Below, in pieces: positions 21,103 through 32,575 of a stretch of DNA of 64,000 nt. The DNA is from Elusimicrobiota bacterium. GTDB lineage: Bacteria; Elusimicrobiota; Elusimicrobia; UBA1565. The translations under genes were made by a program, and so were the position numbers. Each line of letters opens with the position of its first letter. The stretch's first letter is position 1. The stretch lies in NCBI GenBank assembly GCA_043827405.1, contig JBDRPD010000034.1, positions 1 to 64,000 on the forward strand, written 5' to 3'. The notes under the pieces are model-generated. The model was not told where the DNA came from and did not search any database. It saw nothing but the letters and a program-made list of their open reading frames with translations.

Positions 21103-23964
21103 TTAGAACAGGCTCCCGATTCCGAAGTTGATTTGCGATTTTTCTTCGCCGGGGCGATGCTGGAAGCCGTAGCCCCAGTCCAGGCGGATCGGGAACGCGG
21201 GGGTGACGAAGCGAATCCCGAAGCCGATGTCCGTCTTGAGGTCCCGCTCCCCCTTGCCGATGGTGAAGCGGGCGGAGCGCATATTCTCCCACGAGCCGCC
21301 CAGATCGAAGAACGTGACGAACTTTACGATTGTCTTGCGCCGTTCCCGGGCCAGCGGGAAGCCCAGCTCGATGTTGAATACGTCGTAGATCTTGCCGCCG
21401 TTGCGGGCGCCGACCTCGCCGGTCGAGGAATAGCCGCGCAGCGTGTCTTGGCCGCCGATGAAGAACCGCTCGAACACCGGAACCTCCCGAGTCTCATTGA
21501 ACGGCGTGATGTAGGAGGCGCGGTTGGAGGCGGTAAAGACCAGCGGATAGTCCCCGACTTCAAACAGGGTCTTATGGTAAGCGCTGGAGACGTACGGCTT
21601 GAAGAAGTGGATATCGCCCTGGAATATGCCGCCGGCGATGGAGCTGCCAATCGAATGCCGCGTCCCGCGGGCGGGATCCCAGATATTGTCGCGCGTGTCG
21701 CGGGCGAATTCGACGCCGACGGAGGACTGCACGCTGGTCCCTTCCGAGAGGGCGTTTTGGAACTGGCTCTGCACGCCCGTTAGGGAGATTTTCTGGAAGG
21801 TGTAGCTCATGTTTAGGCGGTACTTGTCGTCCTGGAAGCGCGGGCCGACGCGTACGGAGCCGCCCGTCCGCTTGCTGGTGAACGCGGAGTTGGAGCCCTC
21901 GAACGGGGAGATGCGCCGCGTACTGAAGGCGTCAAAGCCCAGGCTGACCGGTTTGTCGAGGATCCAGGGGAGGGTGTAGCCGAGCGTGAAGTCATTGACG
22001 CGCCGGCCGAACGACCATGACGCGTTGGCGCGGTGGGCGCGCCCCCACATGTTGAGGTGCTGGAGCGACAGCGTGCCGATTAGGCCGTCCAGGGACGAGA
22101 AGCCGGCGCCCGCGGTAAGCATGCCGGGCTTGCCCTCGACGACGCCGAAGGTCAGGTCGACAAGGTCCGGGTCAAAGGGGCTCTGGACGTCTAGTGAAAC
22201 ATCGTCGATGAAGCCGAGGTTGCGGATGCGCTCCTGGCTCTTGCGGATCTTTGAGACGGAGAACGGCATGCCCGGCCGGATGACCAGTTCGCGCTTGAAT
22301 ACGAAGGTTTTGGTGGCGCGGTTGCCCTCCACGTCGGTGTGGTCGACATAGGCGGTATTGCCTTCCACGATTTCGAAATGGACGTCCATGAGGCCGGTTT
22401 CCGCATTAAAGGTTCGGGTCGGATCGATTTCGGTTCGCAGGCGGCCCTTCTCGGCATACAGCTCGCGCAGGCTTTGGATGGTGAAGTCGAATTTTTCCTG
22501 ATTGAAGATTTTCTTGCGTTTGTAGTCGACCGCCTTGGCGAGCTCGGTGGAGGCATAGATGCTGTGGCCGTTGAAGGTTGTATCGCCGAAACTATAGAGC
22601 TTGCCTTCCGTCAGGGAGATGTCGATATGGATCTCGGTCTGGGCCTCGTTGAAAGTGATGGAGCTCGAGTCCAGCGTGTAGTCCAGGTGGCCCCGGTTCT
22701 TGTAGAACGTCTGTATTTTTTCCAGGTCTGTTTTGAACTTCTCCTGCGAGAAGATGTCGGCGCTGAACCACTTCGGCCGGTTCTCCATCTGCTTAACGAC
22801 CTTCTTTTCCTTGAACGACTCGACGCCGTGGATCCGGACTTTTTTGATCTTGGCCTTGGGGCCTTCTTCAATGAGGTAGGTGATATCCGTCTTCCAGGTT
22901 TCGGTCGACAGCTCGTCGCGGGTGTCGACCCGGGCGCGGTGGAAGCCCTTCTTCCGGTACAGCTCGAGTATCTTTTCGGCGTCGTCGCGCAGCTTCGCGC
23001 GGTCAAAGGGGTCCTTCTCGCGCAGGGTCAGCTCGTCTCGAATGCGGCCCTTGGAAAGCTTGTCGCGTCCCTCGAAGCTGATTTTTTGGATAAGCGGACG
23101 CTCCGTTACGATGAAGGTCAGGCGGATTTGGTGGCGGGAAGGGGAGGCTGACGCGAAGTGGGCCGGAACCTCCCGGTTGGGGAGCGCCGTAATGTCGGTG
23201 ACCACGCGGTCGAACTTGCCGAGCTGCATGATGTTTTCGTAGTCGTTGTCCAGGTCGCCGCGGTCGTAGAGGTCTCCTTCGCGCGCGTTGATCTGCCGGC
23301 GTACAACCTTGACCTTGGCGTGCCGCAGGCCTTGCAGGACGACCTCTCCCAGCACCCATGGAGGCTCGGGGATCTCTGGTTCGGCGGCGCCCAAAGTCTC
23401 CAGCGCCTGCTTCTCCGCGTCATCGGCGGCGGCGGGCGTCGGCAGGGATCCCGTAACCGGGGGGGGCGCGCCGGGAACCGGCGAGGCGCTTTGCTGCGGC
23501 TGGCGGGTCCTTTCGTCGAGGCGAATATCGATACGCAGAGTTGTGCTGGAGAGTTCTATCCTGCGGATGGCGGCGGAGGTGAATAGTCCGGAGCCGAGCA
23601 GCGCCGACAGGTCCTCCGACTCTTGAGTTCGGGTGTAGGGCGCCCACTGCTTCGCCTGTATTAGATCGCGGACCTGCCTCTCGAGCACGGTTTTGAGTCC
23701 GATGATTTGGATTTGCGCGACGACGGGGGCGACCCCGACGTTAACCGGTTTGGGCCTTGCGGCCGCCGCGGATTCGCCCGCGGGCGCCGGTTGGGCCGGG
23801 ATGGTCCGGGTTCCGTCCGGAAATTTACCGTCTGCCAGATCCTGCAGTGCTTGCAAGGCAGAATCGGCTTCGCCTGCGCCGCCGGCCTCTGCGGCCGAGG
23901 CGGCGGGAGCAATGGTAAGTGCCGAAAAAATAAGAGAAACAGCTAGAAGCAGGGGCAGGTTCAC
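21103..23964 (-). CDS. bamA: Outer membrane protein assembly factor BamA with N-terminal extension
   Basis: Repeated POTRA units, GN..TK..V.KRE, RFFIGG..TLRGY, G.GIR..TP..PIRLDWG, C-terminal F. Confidence 0.95.
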   Translation of the reverse strand: MNLPLLLAVSLIFSALTIAPAASAAEAGGAGEADSALQALQDLADGKFPDGTRTIPAQPAPAGESAAAARPKPVNVGVAPVVAQIQIIGLKTVLERQVRDLIQAKQWAPYTRTQESEDLSALLGSGLFTSAAIRRIELSSTTLRIDIRLDERTRQPQQSASPVPGAPPPVTGSLPTPAAADDAEKQALETLGAAEPEIPEPPWVLGEVVLQGLRHAKVKVVRRQINAREGDLYDRGDLDNDYENIMQLGKFDRVVTDITALPNREVPAHFASASPSRHQIRLTFIVTERPLIQKISFEGRDKLSKGRIRDELTLREKDPFDRAKLRDDAEKILELYRKKGFHRARVDTRDELSTETWKTDITYLIEEGPKAKIKKVRIHGVESFKEKKVVKQMENRPKWFSADIFSQEKFKTDLEKIQTFYKNRGHLDYTLDSSSITFNEAQTEIHIDISLTEGKLYSFGDTTFNGHSIYASTELAKAVDYKRKKIFNQEKFDFTIQSLRELYAEKGRLRTEIDPTRTFNAETGLMDVHFEIVEGNTAYVDHTDVEGNRATKTFVFKRELVIRPGMPFSVSKIRKSQERIRNLGFIDDVSLDVQSPFDPDLVDLTFGVVEGKPGMLTAGAGFSSLDGLIGTLSLQHLNMWGRAHRANASWSFGRRVNDFTLGYTLPWILDKPVSLGFDAFSTRRISPFEGSNSAFTSKRTGGSVRVGPRFQDDKYRLNMSYTFQKISLTGVQSQFQNALSEGTSVQSSVGVEFARDTRDNIWDPARGTRHSIGSSIAGGIFQGDIHFFKPYVSSAYHKTLFEVGDYPLVFTASNRASYITPFNETREVPVFERFFIGGQDTLRGYSSTGEVGARNGGKIYDVFNIELGFPLARERRKTIVKFVTFFDLGGSWENMRSARFTIGKGERDLKTDIGFGIRFVTPAFPIRLDWGYGFQHRPGEEKSQINFGIGSLF

Positions 23965-23982
23965 TGGAGTTTGACCAAGAGA

Positions 23983-24011
23983 AGTATATCAAATCAACGT
24001 CGGGCGGGCAA
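23983..24011 (-). promoter_or_regulatory. Putative sigma70 promoter of the bamA-lpx operon
   Basis: Reverse strand TTGCCC(24011-24006)-N17-TATACT(23988-23983) with a TGn extended -10, 18 nt before GTG23964. Confidence 0.6.
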
Positions 24012-24074
24012 TAAATACCGGGCGAGCTGCCGTACGCGCGCGGGCGACTGTACACATATACCCTAAATAGGAAC

Positions 24075-24587
24075 TTAGCTTGCGGGCTGCAGCATGAATG
24101 ACGGTATCTGCAGAGAGCCGGCGACCTTGCCCAGCAGGCTGCCGGAAAGGTCGATGACTTGGATTCCTTTTATGGGTGCGGTGGGCTGTATGCCGTGGGC
24201 TTCGATCGGCCGGAAGCCGAGCCGGGAGAAATACTCCGGATGGCCGATGACGAAAATAAGCTCGATGCCGAGGCCGCGGCAGCGGTCCAGCCCGTGCCGG
24301 ATCAGCCGCTCGCCGACCCCTTGCCGCTGGCGTTCGGGAACTACGCCGATCGTCGTCAGCAGCGCGCTCGCCTGGCCGCCGACGTGGGTGCGGCAGTATA
24401 AGGCGTAGCCGACGATTTGGTTGTCGTCGGCGGCGACGATCGAAAGCGCGGGATGGAAATGCTCGGAGGAGTCCCGGGCGGCATGTACGAGCTTCGCCTC
24501 GTCGTCGCGGCCGTACGCCGCCTGCAGAATGGCGGTGGCGATGGGAATTTCTTGCGCGGTTTCTGCGCGGATGATTATGCTGCTCAT
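24075..24587 (-). CDS. GNAT family N-acetyltransferase (YhbS-like)
   Basis: IR.E...I......A.....EA.LV...R, LSIVA....IVG, V.PE.QRQGVG.RLI, VIG.PEYF.R.GF. Confidence 0.9.
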   Translation of the reverse strand: MSSIIIRAETAQEIPIATAILQAAYGRDDEAKLVHAARDSSEHFHPALSIVAADDNQIVGYALYCRTHVGGQASALLTTIGVVPERQRQGVGERLIRHGLDRCRGLGIELIFVIGHPEYFSRLGFRPIEAHGIQPTAPIKGIQVIDLSGSLLGKVAGSLQIPSFMLQPAS

Positions 24588-26005
24588 GTGCGGGCCCTGC
24601 GGCGTCGGGTCGGAGTGTTTCCCGACAGCTTGCGTGGTCGGGGGCTCGGGGCCGCTACCGGTGTGCCCTTTTCCGCATCATAATAGTCGAGTCCGGAATG
24701 ATCGATGACCTCCTCGCCCATCAGCAGGCGCAGGGTATTCTGCAGCTTGAGGTGCTGTACAAAGAGGTTGTGTTCCGGCTGCAAGTCTTCCCGGCACTGC
24801 GGCGATTTAAAGAAAAAGGACAGCCACTCCTGGATGCCCTTAAGCTCCGCGCGCTTCGCGAGGTCAAGGAAAAGCGCCAGGTCCAGGACGATCGGAGCGG
24901 CGAGTATCGAGTCGCGGCACAGGAAGTTGATCTTGATCTGCATCGGCATGTCCAGCCAGCCGAAGATGTCGATATTGTCCCAGCCTTCCTTGGCATCTCC
25001 GCGCGGGGGATAGTAGTCGATGCGGACTTTGTGCGAGTAGTTGCCGTACAGGTCGGGGTACAGGCGGGGTTCAAGCATGGAGTCGAGCACCGACATCTTG
25101 CTCTTTTCCTTGGTCTTGAACGAGCCGGGATCGTCGAGGACTTCGCCGTCGCGGTTGCCGAGGATGTTCGTGGAGTACCAGCCGTTGAGCCCCAGCATGC
25201 GCGCCTGGATGCCGGGCGTGACCACGGTTTTCATCCAGGTTTGACCCGTTTTGAAGTCCTTGCCGCCGATCGGGCTGCCGGTTTGTTCCGCCAGCTCGAC
25301 CAGCGCCGGGATGTCGGCGCTCAGGTTGGGCGCGCCGTTGGCGTAGGGAATGCCGAGCTTGATCGCGGCATAGGCGTAGATCATCGACGGGGGGATTTCC
25401 GGGGCGCTTTCCTTGAGGCCGCGCTCAAAAGCCGCCAGGCTGCGGTGCGCCTTGGTGCGCGGCGGCAGGATTTCGGTGGAGCCGCACCAGATCATGACGA
25501 CGCGCTCGAGTCCGTTAACACGTTTAAACTCTTCGATATCGTCGATCACCTGCTGGGCGTACTGCCATTTCGTCTTCGCCTTCTTGATGTACGTCCCCTT
25601 GAGATTCTTGATGAAGCGCTGATCGAAAACTCCGCACATCGGCTTGATGGCGGCGAGCTGGGGCTGGACCGCTTTGAGTCGTTCGGGCGGCAGTACGCCG
25701 GCCTTAAGCGCCGCCTCGTGTACGTTCTCGGGGAAAATATCCCAGCCGCCAAAGACGAGGTTTTCCGTTTTTTCCAGCGGCACGAAGTTGCGAATCAGCG
25801 GGCGGCGCCCCTCGTAGCGTTTGCCGAGGCGGATCGTTTGATTCTGTGATATGGAGCCGATGAGCCGGCCCATATTTTTCCGGTGCAGTGCGATGCCGGC
25901 GATGAAGGTGCTGGTGACGGCCCCCATGCCGGGGAGCAGCACGCCCAGCTTGCCCCGGCAGGCAGGAATCTTTTGGCTCTGGTTTCTGTTTTTATGACTA
26001 GACAT
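24584..26005 (-). CDS. ino1: myo-inositol-3-phosphate (1-phosphate) synthase
   Basis: LGVLLPGMGAV.STF, FGGWDI, WCGSTE, NGAPN, GKDFKTGQT, STNILGNRDG, YYPPRGD.KEGWD, RDSILAAP.VLDL, FFKSP. Confidence 0.95.
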   Translation of the reverse strand: MSSHKNRNQSQKIPACRGKLGVLLPGMGAVTSTFIAGIALHRKNMGRLIGSISQNQTIRLGKRYEGRRPLIRNFVPLEKTENLVFGGWDIFPENVHEAALKAGVLPPERLKAVQPQLAAIKPMCGVFDQRFIKNLKGTYIKKAKTKWQYAQQVIDDIEEFKRVNGLERVVMIWCGSTEILPPRTKAHRSLAAFERGLKESAPEIPPSMIYAYAAIKLGIPYANGAPNLSADIPALVELAEQTGSPIGGKDFKTGQTWMKTVVTPGIQARMLGLNGWYSTNILGNRDGEVLDDPGSFKTKEKSKMSVLDSMLEPRLYPDLYGNYSHKVRIDYYPPRGDAKEGWDNIDIFGWLDMPMQIKINFLCRDSILAAPIVLDLALFLDLAKRAELKGIQEWLSFFFKSPQCREDLQPEHNLFVQHLKLQNTLRLLMGEEVIDHSGLDYYDAEKGTPVAAPSPRPRKLSGNTPTRRRRART

Positions 26006-26036
26006 GGCGCCGTCTCCCTATGGTGAACGATTGAGC

Positions 26037-27950
26037 CTACATTTTATTCTTTTTCGACGAAAAGCGCAGTAAAATCAGGACGGCGAGAAAGAGCGGGCTG
26101 CCCAGGCCCGCGGCCCACAAGAACGGGATCGTTTTATTGCCCAGCGCGAGAACGACGAAAAGATAAATAAAGTCTCTCTGGGTCAGGAGGTGCTCGATCC
26201 TGGCGAGCCAGCGCGTTAGGCCGCGTCCCTGCGGGTCGGCGCCGCCGCCGGCGATGTCGTCGATACCCTGGAACAGCGGGCTGTCATCGTTGCGCCTTTC
26301 CGCCCGCTCGACGGAGTGCCGGTAGACGATCAGCGCGGAGGCGAGACTGCATATCGCGGCGATCGCGCCCAGAAGGAGGCACAGCGCGCCGCCGCCGGCA
26401 CGAAATTGTCCGATGCCGAGACAGCCAAAGAGCAGGAAGTGGACGATGTTGTCGCCCCAGAAGTCGATCTCGCCGCCGCGACGGCTCTCCTGAAAGCGCA
26501 GGCGCGCGAGTTCGCCGTCGCAGCCGTCGAGCAGGGTGTGCAGCCAGATAATGAGGGCGCCGGCCAGAGTAAATGCGTAGCCGCCGCCCGCGAGGATGAG
26601 CGCGCCGGCGGCGCCGACGGCGGCGCTGAAAATTGTCATGTCGTTGGGGGTGATGCGGGTGTTCAGCAGGCGCTGCGTGACGGCGAGCGAGACCCGGCGG
26701 TCAAAATTCCTGGCCATGAAGCTGTCCTGGGCTTTGCGGGCTTCCTTCAGCAGCCAGCGGACCGCGAGGCGCTTGTCGGTGACCTTGGACAGGCGGAAGA
26801 ATGAGCCCCTTGGCATGGCCTCGCTCTCGAAGCCCACATGATGCAGCGAGGGTTTCAGCGCGATTTGGACGACGCCGTAATGGTTGCCGTCCTGGTATGA
26901 GGTCGGGAGCTTGTGGAATGTGGTGAATAGTTCGCGCAGCGCTTCCAGGCGGATAAAGTGGTCGCCGGAGACGCTGGCATAGGGAGGTTCGCACTGCTCG
27001 TCCTCGTCGCTCTTGTCGGCGGAATATTCATCTTCCGCCCACTGGGCCCAACGCACGGCCAAATCCTTCGGCCAGCGGAGAGCCTTGACGGCCTTTTCCT
27101 TCAGGGGGTGCGTGGAGAGCCAGACCTCCCGGATGCCGGCGCGCGCCAGCGTGAACAGCTGGCGCTCGATGACTCGCATGCCGCCGATGTCCTCAAAGAG
27201 GAGGAAGCGATGATCGACCGACAGTACGGCGCGCGTGATCCGCTCGGTTTGCGGCGGCGGCTCGGCGGGCAGCTTCTCCTTGCTGAGATGCCGCTTCTGC
27301 TGCGGTAAATTCCTGGCGAAGTCGGCGATTGGATCCGGGGGGCGCACGCCGTCAAGGTTCTCCGACGGCGGCGGGCTCTCGGCGGGGGTAAGCGTCAGTG
27401 GCGCGTCGGCGGCGGGTGCGGCGGGCGCCGGAGCGGGCGCCGCGGCATCCTGGTAGATTTCAATTGGAGATTCGACGCCTTCAACGCGGTGCGTTCCGGC
27501 GTCTGAGAACGCATGGGCGACGCTCCCCTTGATGTGGTCGTGGACTTCGCGGGAGAGGCAGATGCCGCCCGGCCGCGCGGCGGTGCACAGGCTCTGCGCC
27601 ACGTGCACGCTGCTGCCGTAGACGTTTTGTCCTTCGACCACGACATCGCCCAGGTGGATGCCGACGCGGGCGTGCAGCAGATCACCAGGAGGCTTGCCGG
27701 AATTGTAGTCGGAAAGCAGGCGGTGGATGTCGACCGCGCATTGGGCGGCGTCGACGGCGCTGTCGAAGCTGTAGAGGCAGGTATCACCGAAGTCTTTGAG
27801 CAGGCGTCCCTTGTGTTTTTTCCCGGCGACGCCCAGGATCGTGCGGTGGCGACGGACGAGATCCAGCGCGAACTCCTCTCGCCCGCGCAGCAGGGTTTGG
27901 AAGTTTTGGATGTCGGAGCAGAGGACGGCGGCGAGGCGTCTAGTGGGCAT
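26037..27950 (-). CDS. Fusion: class III nucleotide-cyclase-like domain + degenerate nucleotidyltransferase-like domain + CDP-alcohol phosphotransferase
   Basis: Starts at ATG27950 (MPTRRLAAVLCSDI...KDFGD...RVGIHLGDV...ARPGGICLS). Pro-rich linker, then a GGMRVIERQLFTLARAGIREV middle domain, then ITPN..T and DGCDGELARL...S..G..ID...D (CDP-AP signature). Confidence 0.85.
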   Translation of the reverse strand: MPTRRLAAVLCSDIQNFQTLLRGREEFALDLVRRHRTILGVAGKKHKGRLLKDFGDTCLYSFDSAVDAAQCAVDIHRLLSDYNSGKPPGDLLHARVGIHLGDVVVEGQNVYGSSVHVAQSLCTAARPGGICLSREVHDHIKGSVAHAFSDAGTHRVEGVESPIEIYQDAAAPAPAPAAPAADAPLTLTPAESPPPSENLDGVRPPDPIADFARNLPQQKRHLSKEKLPAEPPPQTERITRAVLSVDHRFLLFEDIGGMRVIERQLFTLARAGIREVWLSTHPLKEKAVKALRWPKDLAVRWAQWAEDEYSADKSDEDEQCEPPYASVSGDHFIRLEALRELFTTFHKLPTSYQDGNHYGVVQIALKPSLHHVGFESEAMPRGSFFRLSKVTDKRLAVRWLLKEARKAQDSFMARNFDRRVSLAVTQRLLNTRITPNDMTIFSAAVGAAGALILAGGGYAFTLAGALIIWLHTLLDGCDGELARLRFQESRRGGEIDFWGDNIVHFLLFGCLGIGQFRAGGGALCLLLGAIAAICSLASALIVYRHSVERAERRNDDSPLFQGIDDIAGGGADPQGRGLTRWLARIEHLLTQRDFIYLFVVLALGNKTIPFLWAAGLGSPLFLAVLILLRFSSKKNKM

Positions 27951-28953
27951 GCTGGCGGTAGATGTTTTCGATGATGGAGACGCAATGCTCCGCCTCGCGG
28001 ATGTTGCGGCCGCGCCGCCGGGAATCGGCGACGGCGGCGCAAAAATCCTCCAGCATGGAGTGAAACCACTCCGGATGGGCGGAGCCGTGCGAGAGCGCTT
28101 CCGGGAAGACGAAAACATGCGGCGGGCGTCCGCCGCGCACCACGCGCAGGCGGTCGTCGAGAATCTCGATCGATCCCTCGCGCCCGCGCAGGACGCCCCA
28201 GTGGCCGCGGCGCGCGGCGTTCCAGGTGAGATGTACGATCGCGCTGGCGCGGGGAAACTCGATAAGGCAGGTGGCCTCGCTGTCGGTGCCCCCGCCGTTG
28301 GCGCCGCTGAATTTGAGCACGCCGGAGCTGCGGCGCGGAATCGCGTCGAGCAGCCAGGCGACGAGATAGAAGGCGTGCCAGCCATGGTCGATCAGGATGC
28401 CGCCGCCCGAGAGCTTCTTGTCGGTTCGCCAATTGCCCTTGGCGGCCGGGCCCGCGACCACGGAGGGCTGGCTGCGCAGCACATGCCACTCCAGGTGCTG
28501 GACGGCGCCGATGGCGCCGTCGTCAAGCAGCGAGCGAAGCTTCTGAAACAGCGGCGCGTACTTCCAGTTATGGATGGTAAACAAGGCGCGGCCGCGCTTC
28601 TTGGCGGTGTTTTTGAGCGTCGCAAAGTCCTTGCGGCTCAGCACCAGGGGCTTTTCGCACAGCACGTGCCTATCCGCCCTTAGGGCCGCGAGACACAGTT
28701 CGGCATGCAGGTGCGGGGGGGTGGCGATGTCGACGAAGTCGAGCTCCCGCTCTTCGCGCAGCAGCCGGTCGCAGTCCGGATAGGTGCGTATCCCGGGGAA
28801 ATGCTTCTCCGCCGCGGCCCGCCGCTCGGCGCTGCCGTCGGCGGCGGCCGTGATGGAGACGCCGCGCAGCTTCTTCCAGGCCGGGGCATGCGCATTTTCC
28901 GCGACCGCGCCGAAGCCGATGATGGCGCCCTTAAGCGCCGCCGCTTCAGCCAT
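27940..28953 (-). CDS. Gfo/Idh/MocA family oxidoreductase (inositol dehydrogenase-like)
   Basis: AIIGFGAVA..AH.P, DFVDIATPP.LH, VLCEKP, GGGILIDHGWH. Confidence 0.9.
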   Translation of the reverse strand: MAEAAALKGAIIGFGAVAENAHAPAWKKLRGVSITAAADGSAERRAAAEKHFPGIRTYPDCDRLLREERELDFVDIATPPHLHAELCLAALRADRHVLCEKPLVLSRKDFATLKNTAKKRGRALFTIHNWKYAPLFQKLRSLLDDGAIGAVQHLEWHVLRSQPSVVAGPAAKGNWRTDKKLSGGGILIDHGWHAFYLVAWLLDAIPRRSSGVLKFSGANGGGTDSEATCLIEFPRASAIVHLTWNAARRGHWGVLRGREGSIEILDDRLRVVRGGRPPHVFVFPEALSHGSAHPEWFHSMLEDFCAAVADSRRRGRNIREAEHCVSIIENIYRQHAH

Positions 28954-30298
28954 TAAGCTCTCCCGAGACGGCCGCGAAAACTTCCTCGAGGATGTCCAGG
29001 CCGCGGTCCGCCTGCTCGCGGGTGATATTGAGCGGAGGGTTGATGCGGATGACCGGGGAGTAGGACATCGTCATAAGCCCCCGGCGCAGCGCCTCATCGA
29101 ATATCCTGCGGCAGGCGGTTTTTGCCAGGGGCTTTTTCGTGGCGCGGTCCTGCACCAGCTCGACGCCGATCAGCAGGCCTTGGCCGCGCACGTCGCCGAT
29201 AAACGCGAAGCGGTCCTGCAGTTTCTTGAGCCGCGCCAGCATGTGCGCGCCGAGGTCGCGGCTGTTGTCCACCAGCTTTTCATTCTTGAGGATTTTTAAG
29301 GCGGCGTTGCATGCGGCAGCGGCGAGAGGGTTGCCGCCGTAGCTCGAGGACGACCCGGAAGGGTCGGCGAAGGGCTTGGCAGCGGCGATGGCGCTTGGCG
29401 CGATGAGACCGCTGACCGGGAAGCCGCCCGCGATGCCCTTGCCGACGGTCATAATGTCCGGCTGCACGCCCTCGTGCTGACAGCCGAACCATTTCCCGGT
29501 GCGGCCGAAGCCGGTGATCATCTCATCGGCGATAAGCAGTCCGCCGTGCTCGTGCGCGATGTCGCGCAGTCCGGTTAGGAACCCGGGAGGAGGCTGTACG
29601 TTGCCGGCCGTCCCCTGGATCGGCTCGACGATGATGCCGGCGAGGTTGTTGGTCGTGGAGCGGCGGATCATGGTGCGCAAAAACTCGAGGCAGTGCGCGG
29701 CGCAGTCATGCTCGCCTTCCGTCCCGAAGGGGCAGCGGTAGGGGTTCGGGAACGGCGCGAGGTAGCGTCCGGGGGTGAGCGGCCCCAGACCATGCTTGAA
29801 GTTGTCGCCGAGCAGTCCCAGGACGCCGCCGGTTTTGCCGTGAAAACCGCCCCAGAAGCCGATGAATTCCGCATGGCGGGTATGGCTTATCGCCAGCCGG
29901 AAAGCGGCTTCCACTGCCTCTGAGCCTCCGGAGTAAAGCTGGAAGCGGTCCAGGCCCTTGGGAAGCACTTCCATGAGGCCGCGGCCGAATTCAACGCGGT
30001 TTTTGGTGGTGAAGCTGCCGACGTTGATGGCGGCCGCCTGTTCGGCGATGGCCCGGGCGTAGTCCGGATGGCCGTGGCCGATCGAGGCGACGCAGACGCC
30101 GGCCACGAAATCGATGTATTCCTTGCCGTCTAGATCATAGAACAGCGCCCCCCGGCCCTTGTCCAGCGTGATTTGGGAGAACAGCGCGATCGACTGCAGG
30201 CCGGGCGTCATGTAATTCTGTTCCTCTTCGAACCATTGTCGGGACAGCGGTCCGGTAATGGGTTCTTGGGAGGGAGATTTTTTTGTGGAGCTTGTCAT
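28946..30298 (-). CDS. Class III PLP-dependent aminotransferase
   Basis: D.DGKEYIDF, SGGSEAVE.A, GGFHGKT, IVEPIQG, IADEMITGFGRTG, PDIMTVGKG (PLP Lys). Start ATG30298 follows GAGGA. Confidence 0.93.
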   Translation of the reverse strand: MTSSTKKSPSQEPITGPLSRQWFEEEQNYMTPGLQSIALFSQITLDKGRGALFYDLDGKEYIDFVAGVCVASIGHGHPDYARAIAEQAAAINVGSFTTKNRVEFGRGLMEVLPKGLDRFQLYSGGSEAVEAAFRLAISHTRHAEFIGFWGGFHGKTGGVLGLLGDNFKHGLGPLTPGRYLAPFPNPYRCPFGTEGEHDCAAHCLEFLRTMIRRSTTNNLAGIIVEPIQGTAGNVQPPPGFLTGLRDIAHEHGGLLIADEMITGFGRTGKWFGCQHEGVQPDIMTVGKGIAGGFPVSGLIAPSAIAAAKPFADPSGSSSSYGGNPLAAAACNAALKILKNEKLVDNSRDLGAHMLARLKKLQDRFAFIGDVRGQGLLIGVELVQDRATKKPLAKTACRRIFDEALRRGLMTMSYSPVIRINPPLNITREQADRGLDILEEVFAAVSGELNG

Positions 30299-31152
30299 GT
30301 TGTCCTCTTGGTTTTGGGGAGGGCGAGCGCATGCTTCAGGCGTTTCTGCAGCTGCCAGGAAATCTGCACCGCCGCTTCTTTGCGGACCAGGGCGAAGCTG
30401 GGCCAGGAGTTGAAATCGAGTACCGTGATCGTTCCGTCCGGGGCGATGATGGCGTCGCCGCCGAAAATCTGCAGCGCCAGCGCCGTGGCGCCGGCCGCCG
30501 CCTGCGTGGCGAGCGAATCGACGTCGAATACGTGCCGGCACGCGCGGACCGCGTCGTGATAGAACCAGGTGAACCAGTGGCCGGGTCCGGCGCCGTAGAA
30601 CTTGATGAGATCGCCGTCGATGTGGGGCTGGATGATCCAGTGCGTAATCTCCCGCTTTTGGAAATCGGACACAATCTCACGCGCCCGCTCCCAGGTCTCG
30701 GCGCGCACAACGTCGTGGTCGCAGGTATTGTGCACGTCGCCTCGTTTGAGCCACCAGCCTTGGGGCGCCGGGAAGGCCGGCGGGTCGCCGGCTCCCGCCT
30801 CAACGGTGCGGACCTCGGTATCCGGGAAGCGGACCTCGCCGAGCGCCTGCATCGCGGGCGCCAGATGCGTTCGGTAGCAGTTGAGTACGGCGCGCGGGGG
30901 GTTCGCCCAGAGGGCGGTAGATCCTTCGGATTCCCGCAGCAGGCGCATAATGCGGGGATAGGATTCGCACATGGGGATGATCAGGTCCCAGCCGCGCAGG
31001 TCCAGGCCGTCGGCCTCCTCGGGCGTCACCGCCCGAGTCTTGAAGCCCATGGGCGCGAGCTGTTCAAGCACGGCTTGCAGGATCAGCGCGTCGTCGCTTT
31101 CGCGGTTGGGGGAGTTCGTTACTTCACGGAAAATGCCTAAGCACCGTAGCAT
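30295..31152 (-). CDS. ATP-grasp fold enzyme (ITPK1/RimK-like)
   Basis: Start ATG31152 (MLRCLGIFREVTNSPNRESDD). Motifs NPP.AV.NC.R, WLKRGDVH, IIQPHIDGDLIKFY, IFGGDAI, VLDFNSWPSF. Confidence 0.75.
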   Translation of the reverse strand: MLRCLGIFREVTNSPNRESDDALILQAVLEQLAPMGFKTRAVTPEEADGLDLRGWDLIIPMCESYPRIMRLLRESEGSTALWANPPRAVLNCYRTHLAPAMQALGEVRFPDTEVRTVEAGAGDPPAFPAPQGWWLKRGDVHNTCDHDVVRAETWERAREIVSDFQKREITHWIIQPHIDGDLIKFYGAGPGHWFTWFYHDAVRACRHVFDVDSLATQAAAGATALALQIFGGDAIIAPDGTITVLDFNSWPSFALVRKEAAVQISWQLQKRLKHALALPKTKRTT

Positions 31153-31877
31153 GAGATCACCTTTTCGGCCGCGGAAAGATCCTCCGGCCGGTCGACGTCG
31201 ATAGTATCCTGCAGGAGGACGCCGCGCACGACGGCGCCGCTGCGGATGAGATCGGTCCAATAGCTGCGCAGCTTGCCGTGCGCCGCCGCGGCGGGCATCG
31301 CCTCCGGCAAGGCTCGGGTTAAGGCGTATAGCCCGCAGGTTACGGATAGCCGCTGTTCAGGAGAGACGTCTTCGCCCAGGGCGCAAATGTTTCCGGCGGC
31401 GTCCCGCTGCGCCCATAGCGGCTTTTCATCTTCGACGAAGCCGGTCAGCGCGAGCGCGGCGGCGGGGGACGGCGCGCCGCCGGTTGCCGGGGCGAGCGCT
31501 TCGCCGGAGAAGCGCGCGATGTCGGCGGGGCGGATCAGCGCGTCCACCGTGCTGATCATGAAGTCGCCCGAATCCTGCGCCAGGGTTCGCGAGACGAGCC
31601 GGAAGCTCTCCCAGGAAGAGGCCGTGTCCCGGCGCAGGAAGCGCCAGTGAAGATCCGCGAAGTTTTCTTCCAGGTAGGTCCGCACGGCGTCGCCGGAGGT
31701 GTTGAGCAGGATCGTGATGTGCCGGATGCCGGCGCTGCGGAGGTTGGCCACCACCCAGTACACCAACGGTTTTCCCCGCACCGGCACCAGCGGCTTGGGA
31801 GTGTCGGGATGCGCGGCGGACAGGCGCGAGCCGAGTCCGGCGGCGATAATGCCGGCGCGCGCCAGGGGCGCGGTCAT
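31137..31877 (-). CDS. Nucleotidyltransferase (NTP_transferase; IPCT/sugar-phosphate type)
   Basis: AGIIAAGLGSRL...PKPLV.V.GKPL, STVD, DEKPL, IDVD.PEDL..A. Confidence 0.88.
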   Translation of the reverse strand: MTAPLARAGIIAAGLGSRLSAAHPDTPKPLVPVRGKPLVYWVVANLRSAGIRHITILLNTSGDAVRTYLEENFADLHWRFLRRDTASSWESFRLVSRTLAQDSGDFMISTVDALIRPADIARFSGEALAPATGGAPSPAAALALTGFVEDEKPLWAQRDAAGNICALGEDVSPEQRLSVTCGLYALTRALPEAMPAAAAHGKLRSYWTDLIRSGAVVRGVLLQDTIDVDRPEDLSAAEKVISCYGA

Positions 31878-32575
31878 GCGGCAGCCTCTTTGGGAAGCAG
31901 CAGGTCTTCCAGATCGGACAGCGCGTCAAGAATGGTCGCCTGCGCACAGCAGGCGTCCTTGCGATCACGTTCTCCGCGGACCCAGGCATGCGGCATGCCG
32001 AGCGCTTCCGCTCCGCGCATATCCCGCGGGACGGAATCGCCGACCATTAGGGCCGCTTCCGGAGCGACGCCCAGCAGGTCCGTGGCGTGCAGGAACAGTT
32101 TCTTGTCCGGCTTCAGAGCGCCGACTTTCTCGGAGTCCGCTACGGCATCGAACAGGTCGGCGAGGCCTTCATGCTCAAGGATAGAATCGAGATTGCCGTA
32201 GAAATTTGAAACGATGCCGAGGCGAAAGCGACGACGAAGGCGCTCGAGCAGTGGTCGATTAAGCTGGAGGGCCGTGCGCGACTCTTCCACGAAGCGGCGG
32301 GTGATCTTCTCAAGGTAGGTGCCGCGTGCCATATTTAGGGCGTCCAATACGCAGCCGGCCTGCAGCCGGACCGTCTCTTCTAAGGAAAGGCCGGCAAGAG
32401 CAAAGCGGGCGGGCAGGTTGTCGTCCGCATCATAGAAGGCGCGGTCGAATGTTTCGGGAGCGGCCGGGCATCCGCTATCAGCATAAATCCGCCGAAAACG
32501 CTCGCGCCAATGGAGTCCATTGGCATCTAGAGTCCCGCCAAAATCGAACAATACGGCCTGTATAGTTTGTGTCAT
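31874..32575 (-). CDS. HAD family hydrolase (phosphatase)
   Basis: VLFDFGGTLD, IVSNFYGN, KPD..LF, MVGDS...DM.GA..LGM. Start ATG32575. Confidence 0.9.
   Translation of the reverse strand: MTQTIQAVLFDFGGTLDANGLHWRERFRRIYADSGCPAAPETFDRAFYDADDNLPARFALAGLSLEETVRLQAGCVLDALNMARGTYLEKITRRFVEESRTALQLNRPLLERLRRRFRLGIVSNFYGNLDSILEHEGLADLFDAVADSEKVGALKPDKKLFLHATDLLGVAPEAALMVGDSVPRDMRGAEALGMPHAWVRGERDRKDACCAQATILDALSDLEDLLLPKEAAA

Follow-up and report, generated by a model that had tools for sequence, protein, structure and literature searches.

The 64,000-nucleotide stretch of DNA analysed here (the window; contig JBDRPD010000034.1 of GenBank assembly GCA_043827405.1, from an Elusimicrobiota bacterium) carries a gene, P0001, whose product is a rare fusion of a nucleotide cyclase domain, belonging to class III, to a cytidine diphosphate (CDP)-alcohol phosphotransferase of the AF2299 type. 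Judged from its residues, the cyclase domain of P0001 is likely catalytically dead but still folded. Both halves of the protein are of known kinds; the pairing is new, and so is the series from intact to dead cyclase sites found within it.

Architecture of the Fusion Protein

The original prediction, made from the letters of the window alone, had described one frame with a cyclase part, a linker, a nucleotidyltransferase-like part and a CDP-alcohol phosphotransferase part. This description was borne out: the gene is a 637-amino-acid open reading frame free of stops and frameshifts. Pfam placed PF00211 at residues 8-166 (24.3 bits, cut-off 21.9) and PF01066 at residues 433-545. The motifs that had been quoted (SDI, KDFGD, NVYGSSVHVAQSL and the CDP-alcohol phosphotransferase signature) are all present.

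In the AlphaFold model, residues 1-168 form a class III cyclase fold with a predicted local distance difference test (pLDDT) score of 75-93, and Foldseek aligned them to 3MR7 with an E value of 1e-13, a template modelling (TM) score by target of 0.89 and a root-mean-square deviation (rmsd) of 2.1. The short-arm cyclases 3MR7 (Silicibacter), Ma1120 and Rv1900c/LipJ share fold and motif layout with P0001 (E 2e-24, 2e-11 and 1e-8, respectively). The partner domain in these enzymes is a hydrolase or TPR domain, whereas in P0001 it is a membrane transferase. Residues 171-228 are disordered in the model, and the remainder after the linker matches AF2299.

The transferase signature of P0001 reads D475-G-C-D478-G-E-L-A-R483...G492..I-D496...D500. 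D475, D478, G479, A482, R483, G492, D496 and D500 were invariant in all eight transferases compared, and the Asp, Gly and Arg positions of the motif also in a wider set (53 of 53). A deeper model of residues 236-637 reached a pLDDT of 90.9 and a predicted TM score of 0.88. Its transferase part has a multi-helix membrane fold (VIA Z 17.2 to PgsA1, 6H5A, over 192 residues). The middle domain has a nucleotidyltransferase fold, with a VIA Z of 13.7 to IspD over 154 residues and of 12-14 to IspD, MurU and other nucleotidyltransferases. Middle and membrane parts together matched IPCT-DIPPS (4MND) with a VIA Z of 25.7 and an rmsd of 3.4 over 337 residues, and the best Foldseek match of the whole region was AF2299 (TM 0.63/0.73 over 415 columns).

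AF2299 of Archaeoglobus fulgidus (4O6M, 4O6N, 4Q7C) likewise combines an N-terminal cytidylyltransferase-like domain with a CDP-alcohol phosphotransferase. It is also the best sequence match of P0001 (E 1e-38, about 20% identity), but unlike P0001 it has neither a cyclase domain nor a linker. AF2299 uses CDP-glycerol (part of PMC4634129), whereas the donor of P0001 is taken to be a CDP-polyol only by likeness and from the neighbouring nucleoside triphosphate (NTP) transferase. IPCT/DIPPS (4MND; NF041135) shares the two-domain fold, and an inositol-phosphate synthase lies near P0001; the score against NF041135 was 68.6 bits, below the cut-off of 580. Unlike IPCT/DIPPS, P0001 has a separate NTP transferase upstream, and its middle domain is missing the GxGxR loop as well as some 58 residues. 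We looked for this loop in the middle domain of P0001 and found it absent: the alignment to 4MND begins behind it, and the gap is about 58 residues long. The original prediction was thus right about the missing loop, but the domain it called a remnant is no special remnant; it is the known AF2299 arrangement.

The fusion is not an assembly artefact. A single contig of run X1, possibly the window's own source, spans the gene. A 473-base contig of run X2, from a different study, covers positions 27166-27638 and with them the entire linker; it has 15 differences and is free of gaps. Together with the uninterrupted frame and ten further proteins of the same architecture, these contigs rule out the chimeric assembly that the original prediction had asked to be checked.

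The Cyclase Domain of P0001 Has Lost Half of Its Catalytic Residues

In class III cyclases, one monomer supplies two metal-binding Asp and the beta-4 Arg to the active site, and the other supplies the helix-4 Asn and Arg and the beta7-beta8 Lys (part of PMC2576301). A Lys and an Asp choose the base (part of PMC4215837). P0001 keeps D13 (in SDI), K52 and D56 (in KDFGD) and R95, so that the metal Asp pair and the beta-4 triphosphate Arg (D13, D56, R95) are present. The other four of the eight catalytic residues are lost, N109, H116, S120 and E157 replacing D, N, R and K. In alignments to 3MR7 and Ma1120, H116 falls at the Asn site and S120 at the Arg site. The adenine-specifying pair is incomplete, with K52 present and N109 in place of an Asp that is found in 126 of 128 unfused relatives. 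The triphosphate Lys replaced by E157 is found in 124 of the 126 unfused relatives with a residue there, and the transition-state Arg in 124 of 128.

A residue other than Asn at the first transition-state site is common to P0001, Ma1120 and Rv1900c. Rv1900c, with His there, is active (part of PMC4886424), as is Ma1120, with Ala there and the transition-state Arg kept (part of PMC4215837). H116 alone is therefore no proof of inactivity. Unlike 3MR7, Ma1120 and Rv1900c, P0001 has lost the transition-state Arg, the specificity Asp and the triphosphate Lys, and it is the combination of R120S with D109N and K157E that makes cyclase activity of this domain unlikely. The His and Ser substitutions reported in the original prediction were found as described, but N109 and E157 had been overlooked. 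Its term pseudo-cyclase fits P0001, although His is not disabling by itself.

The losses are not shared by the whole family. P0139, a metagenome protein of 670 amino acids, has all eight canonical cyclase residues; by these it is a candidate for an adenylyl cyclase that still works, fused to a CDP-alcohol phosphotransferase. The remaining fusion members keep one to six of the eight, and losses differ by lineage: P0005 and P0007 retain one residue each and both lack the second Asp, P0008/P0140 have a deletion through the motif, and P0006 as called lacks the first residues. All eight residues occur in one of 12 fusion-clade domains versus 118 of the 126 ungapped ones among 128 unfused relatives, which were picked by likeness to the intact P0139 and are thus biased towards intact sites. 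A conserved His/Ser design was ruled out, since each lineage lost different residues, and the idea of degeneration as a family-wide design had to be given up.

Within the fusion clade, D13 is retained in 9 of 11, D56 in 10 of 12 and R95 in 11 of 12 domains, compared to 3-6 of 10-12 for the base-choosing and transition-state residues. Core Gly/Ala positions are kept in 11-12 of 12. On the tree, each metal Asp changed twice, R95 once and the partner-side residues three to eight times; the metal Asp are in the top quarter of columns.

The cyclase domain has also drifted faster than the transferase. Distances from P0001 to the other ten members are 1.4 to 4.8 times larger in the cyclase domain than in the transferase, whereas in the two best-preserved members the cyclase domain is the more similar part (62% versus 54% identity). 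When genomes G000 and G008 are compared, the cyclase domains are 31% identical, the transferase domains 59% and an intact cyclase-RDD protein present in both 76%. The faster drift indicates that catalytic constraint on the cyclase domain was released; the kept core Gly/Ala positions and the strain differences described below indicate that constraint on the fold was retained.

Distribution and Origin of the Fusion

The full architecture was found in 11 proteins including P0001, and in none of an unrelated clade (403 proteins compared). Coverage of P0001 was 97-100% in seven other proteins, which are 41-57% identical to it. Searching 1.84 billion representatives with a profile brought in P0139, P0140 (the fusion protein of G008), P0142 and a cyclase-only piece, P0219. 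Both the cyclase and the transferase profile were matched by 14 of 403 proteins, all within the fusion family, and the cyclase part was joined to the transferase in one of 40 relatives. The close homologues of P0001 that carry names belong to Elusimicrobiota. In a search of 401 genomes of the phylum with a strict threshold (E 1e-28, at most four candidates scored per genome), the fusion was present in two, G000 and G008. A widespread or common architecture, which the original prediction had named, if already characterised, among the outcomes that would refute it, was thereby ruled out. Short fusion fragments were also searched for, and the best 120 of 4137 matches were generic cyclases only.

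The original prediction had known of no cyclase domain on such fusions. Our searches of the open-access literature, supplements excluded, likewise found nothing on a fusion of a cyclase to a CDP-alcohol phosphotransferase. In the automatic IMG names of three members, 'class 3 adenylate cyclase' is already combined with 'phosphatidylglycerophosphate synthase'. Cyclase domains of the type found in P0001 are joined to many partners in Elusimicrobiota, and other fusions occur in the same transferase family: P0198 has a C-terminal NTP transferase, P0247 an NTP transferase and an LPG-synthase membrane region, P0270 is a doubled transferase and P0227 has a long N-terminal part without assignment.

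In a careful tree of 17 rows, the fusions' cyclase domains group as a single clade (94/97). In a wider cyclase tree of 54 rows, which is a quick tree only, the nearest unfused sisters are two Elusimicrobiota proteins with full motifs, one of cyclase-kinase-membrane and one of cyclase-membrane architecture (Shimodaira-Hasegawa-like approximate likelihood ratio test 97). The nearest unfused relative of the fused domain, an intact cyclase with a Ser/Thr kinase and a membrane region, is encoded at L041:2551-4830 (G034:C2). Donor-type proteins at an identity of at least 55% occur in three of 101 genomes of the order, none of them in the window's family.

In the transferase tree, a clade of fusions only was rejected (approximately unbiased test, p-AU 0.0019) because the unfused P0014 is the sister of P0007 (100/99). 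A clade of the fusions plus P0014 was not rejected (p-AU 0.36). Several separate fusion events are thus disfavoured, the cyclase domains forming one clade, and the simplest reading of these trees would be a single gain, followed by one loss or a short gene call in P0014. An intact membrane-anchored cyclase gene would have given the N-terminal domain and the linker once, in the common ancestor of a single subclade within an Elusimicrobiota family. As P0139 keeps all eight residues, this early fusion probably worked as an adenylyl cyclase, and the residues for base choice and transition-state stabilisation would have been lost separately in several descendant lines. P0219 (219 amino acids) is the sister of P0006 in the cyclase tree. 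Its C-terminal end resembles the P0006 linker read in another frame, so that P0219 may represent either a fusion with a frameshift or an error in the sequencing.

The Fusion Gene Lies in an Inositol Operon

The fusion gene is the sixth of seven genes on the minus strand (24584-32572), in the order HAD hydrolase, NTP transferase, ATP-grasp-like protein, class III aminotransferase, Gfo/Idh/MocA oxidoreductase, fusion gene, inositol-phosphate synthase (Table 1). This order is preserved across the order and in distant metagenome loci. In all 20 mapped relatives' loci, the last four genes up to the transferase keep their order. The inositol-phosphate synthase is present in 14 of these 20 loci; the six loci without it are L022, L025, L026, L028, L031 and L034. 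The stand-alone NTP transferase is likely the active cytidylyltransferase of the pathway, and the oxidoreductase and aminotransferase suggest an aminated inositol head group. Promoter and terminator scans gave results near chance.

Table 1. Features of the fusion gene and its operon (positions in the window)
Feature	Position	Strand	Basis or remark
HAD-family hydrolase, first operon gene	31874..32572	-	Pfam
Stand-alone NTP transferase with GLGSR loop	31137..31877	-	Pfam, sequence
Conserved hypothetical protein, likely ATP-grasp-like	30295..31152	-	No Pfam match; RimK in 14-16% of the members of look-alike clusters
Class III aminotransferase	28946..30298	-	Pfam
Gfo/Idh/MocA oxidoreductase	27940..28953	-	Pfam; gene end overlaps fusion start codon by 11 bases
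Fusion gene P0001, 637 amino acids	26037..27950	-	Cyclase-like domain, linker, nucleotidyltransferase-like domain, CDP-alcohol phosphotransferase
Class III cyclase-like domain, residues 1-168	27447..27950	-	Pfam, alignment, Foldseek
Degenerate specificity and transition-state motif NVYGSSVHVAQSL, residues 109-121	27588..27626	-	Sequence; alignment to 3MR7 and Ma1120
Pro/Ala-rich linker, residues 169-236, predicted disordered	27243..27446	-	AlphaFold model; contig from independent run spans linker
Cytidylyltransferase-like domain without GxGxR loop (AF2299 type), residues 237-392	26775..27242	-	Sequence and structure comparison
CDP-alcohol phosphotransferase membrane domain	26037..26774	-	Intact DxxDGxxAR...GxxxDxxxD at 26451-26528
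myo-Inositol-1-phosphate synthase	24584..26005	-	Pfam

A comparable set of genes is known from the alternative inositol lipid cluster of Bacteroides vulgatus (Heaver et al. 2022, part of PMC9246714), which, as here, comprises a myo-inositol-1-phosphate synthase, an NTP transferase, a CDP-alcohol phosphotransferase and a HAD hydrolase. According to the same part of that paper, a CDP-inositol route was proposed for this cluster and is itself unconfirmed. Relative to it, the operon of P0001 adds the oxidoreductase and the aminotransferase, and the part of PMC9246714 that describes the cluster does not mention a cyclase domain.

Downstream on the same strand (21103-24587) follow a GNAT acetyltransferase and then bamA, skp, lpxD, an lpxC-like and a fabZ-like gene. 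bamA adjoins the operon in most mapped relatives, and a role of the operon in the envelope fits with this arrangement.

Possible Roles of the Fused Cyclase Domain

The transferase likely does not need the cyclase domain. Only one of the 20 mapped relatives' operons has the cyclase part, and among the best 80 of 519 metagenome loci, many of which are short, it is present in two. Since no cyclase part was seen in 19 of 20 mapped operons and in 78 of those 80 loci, the pathway seems not to require it. For the same reason, the proposal that the domain gates inositol synthesis, put forward in the original prediction, is possible but unsupported.

The reading we favour, to which we give about an even chance of being correct, is that the dead cyclase domains, flexibly tethered, associate in pairs and serve as a dimerisation or scaffold module without control over the reaction, while the transferase moves CDP-activated inositol, perhaps modified, to an acceptor alcohol. 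The polyol, probably inositol itself or a modified form of it, would be CDP-activated by the separate NTP transferase and then passed on to the acceptor alcohol by the membrane domain. The two tethered cyclase domains would pair on their leash of about 60 residues, and the dead domain perhaps retains a residual metal-phosphate site. Pairing is proposed because CDP-alcohol phosphotransferases, a dimeric family (part of PMC4634129), and class III cyclases are both dimers.

Differences between strains bear on whether the domain is still maintained. Among the listed differences to X2, the cyclase domain has six silent and four replacement codons (all mild), the middle domain seven silent and no replacement codons, and the transferase nine silent and six replacement codons. 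The resulting ratios of replacement to silent polymorphism (pN/pS) are 0.22, 0 and 0.23, respectively, with P 0.02 against neutrality for the cyclase domain, which suggests purifying selection; these counts are small, come from contigs of depth 4-6, include 11 of about 14 differences in the cyclase part and are uncorrected for transitions.

Besides the limits of these strain counts and the bias of the unfused controls, several observations speak against the scaffold reading and the history on which it builds. Eleven of 12 clade members retain the cyclase domain, across genera and with transferases up to 1.0-1.7 changes per site apart, a long persistence for a mere dimerisation add-on to an enzyme that is already dimeric. 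This long retention, and the rarely changed metal Asp, would fit a ligand-binding or half-cyclase role equally well. The clade of fusion cyclase domains (94/97) is unstarred, and the tree of neighbouring genes joins three fusion loci weakly (78/78).

A less probable explanation, to which we give perhaps one chance in five, is that the dead domain serves as a nucleotide sensor whose dimer binds a metal-triphosphate (ATP, or CTP with relaxed base selection) or pyrophosphate and tunes the transferase. The preferential retention of D13, D56 and R95 (9 of 11, 10 of 12 and 11 of 12, versus 3-6 of 10-12), their few changes on the tree (2, 2 and 1, versus 3-8) and the purifying selection between strains would be expected of such a domain. 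We compared this retention with that in unrelated tandem cyclases, whose non-canonical domains also keep the Asp pair (38 of 44 and 41 of 44), so that it is common in the subclass. This control, albeit imperfect, as many of these domains may be active, weakens Asp retention as proof of ligand binding. Moreover, the second Asp is gone from P0005 and P0007, P0001 has QNFQ in place of the G-F-T phosphate loop, some 60 disordered residues lie between the domains, and most relatives have no cyclase domain to sense with. An extended version, in which a P0139-like ancestor makes cyclic AMP (cAMP) at the site of inositol head-group synthesis, and lines like P0001 became sensors of metal-CTP or pyrophosphate that gate an amino-inositol phosphodiester pathway, would form a series from enzyme to regulatory pseudo-enzyme; we regard it as improbable to a similar degree.

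Somewhat more doubtful still is that the domain is a passenger on its way out, derived from a chance fusion of an active cyclase and kept for a start codon coupled to the upstream gene and for the need not to misfold. The lineage-specific losses, down to one residue of eight in P0005 and P0007, and the motif deletion in P0008/P0140 are in line with this, as are the missing domain in P0014, a close relative and sister of P0007 (100/99), and the resemblance of P0219, at the protein level only, to a frameshifted P0006-type gene. In P0001, codons 203-257, where unfused relatives start, contain no in-frame ATG, GTG or TTG. P0014 may, however, be a short gene call, and neither the retention in 11 of 12 members over such transferase distances nor a pN/pS of about 0.22 is expected of a mere passenger.

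It is unlikely that the domain supplies the metal-binding side of a heterodimeric cyclase with one working site, as the original prediction had also suggested, the most plausible partner being the intact cyclase-RDD membrane protein. Like the C1-like monomer A of pseudo-heterodimeric cyclases, P0001 has preserved both metal Asp and the beta-4 Arg but not the Asn, Arg and Lys of monomer B (roles from part of PMC2576301), K52 being the only monomer-B residue still present. Unlike such a monomer A, it is matched by no dedicated complementary half, either within the chain or elsewhere in the genome, and the pattern of loss varies among fusion lineages. G000 has ten cyclase and 21 cyclic nucleotide-binding matches, and an intact cyclase of the same short-arm type occurs in both G000 (L165) and G008 (L057). 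A dedicated complementary half, that is, a domain of the same type without the Asp pair and with the partner-side set, was found neither among the nine other domains of G000 nor among the 16 of G008, the genomes being 98% and 93% complete. The only G000 domain that lacks the first Asp, L164, belongs to the long-arm type; in G008, the domain of this type, L174, is intact. The cyclase-RDD protein is complete alone and also present in unfused relatives; a loose pairing of the P0001 domain with it is possible.

Some of these proteins are worth recording in their own right. L165:3757-4674 (G000:C36) and L057 (G008:C27) represent a conserved family of intact cyclase-RDD membrane proteins in the order, with cyclase domains 76% identical. 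L164:376-2190 (G000:C73) encodes a FIST-domain long-arm class III cyclase with Arg at the Asn site and no first metal Asp, a second degenerate cyclase in G000.

Finally, it is very improbable that the P0001 domain has remained active as a non-canonical cyclase in the manner of Rv1900c or Ma1120: it does have both Asp, K52 and R95, and its closest solved relatives include active enzymes with His or Ala at the Asn site (parts of PMC4886424 and PMC4215837), but Ma1120 keeps the Arg (part of PMC4215837), as do 124 of 128 unfused relatives, whereas P0001 has Ser there and has also lost the specificity Asp and the triphosphate Lys.

Implications

The fusion family holds stages from a complete site (P0139) to one of eight residues (P0005, P0007) and thus offers a series for the transition from enzyme to pseudo-enzyme after fusion. 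The series comprises about a dozen sequences of one subclade, most relatives having no such domain. If the intact form makes cAMP, or if the dead form binds a nucleotide and tunes the transferase, second-messenger domains would be linked to the synthesis of inositol lipids or solutes in bacteria.

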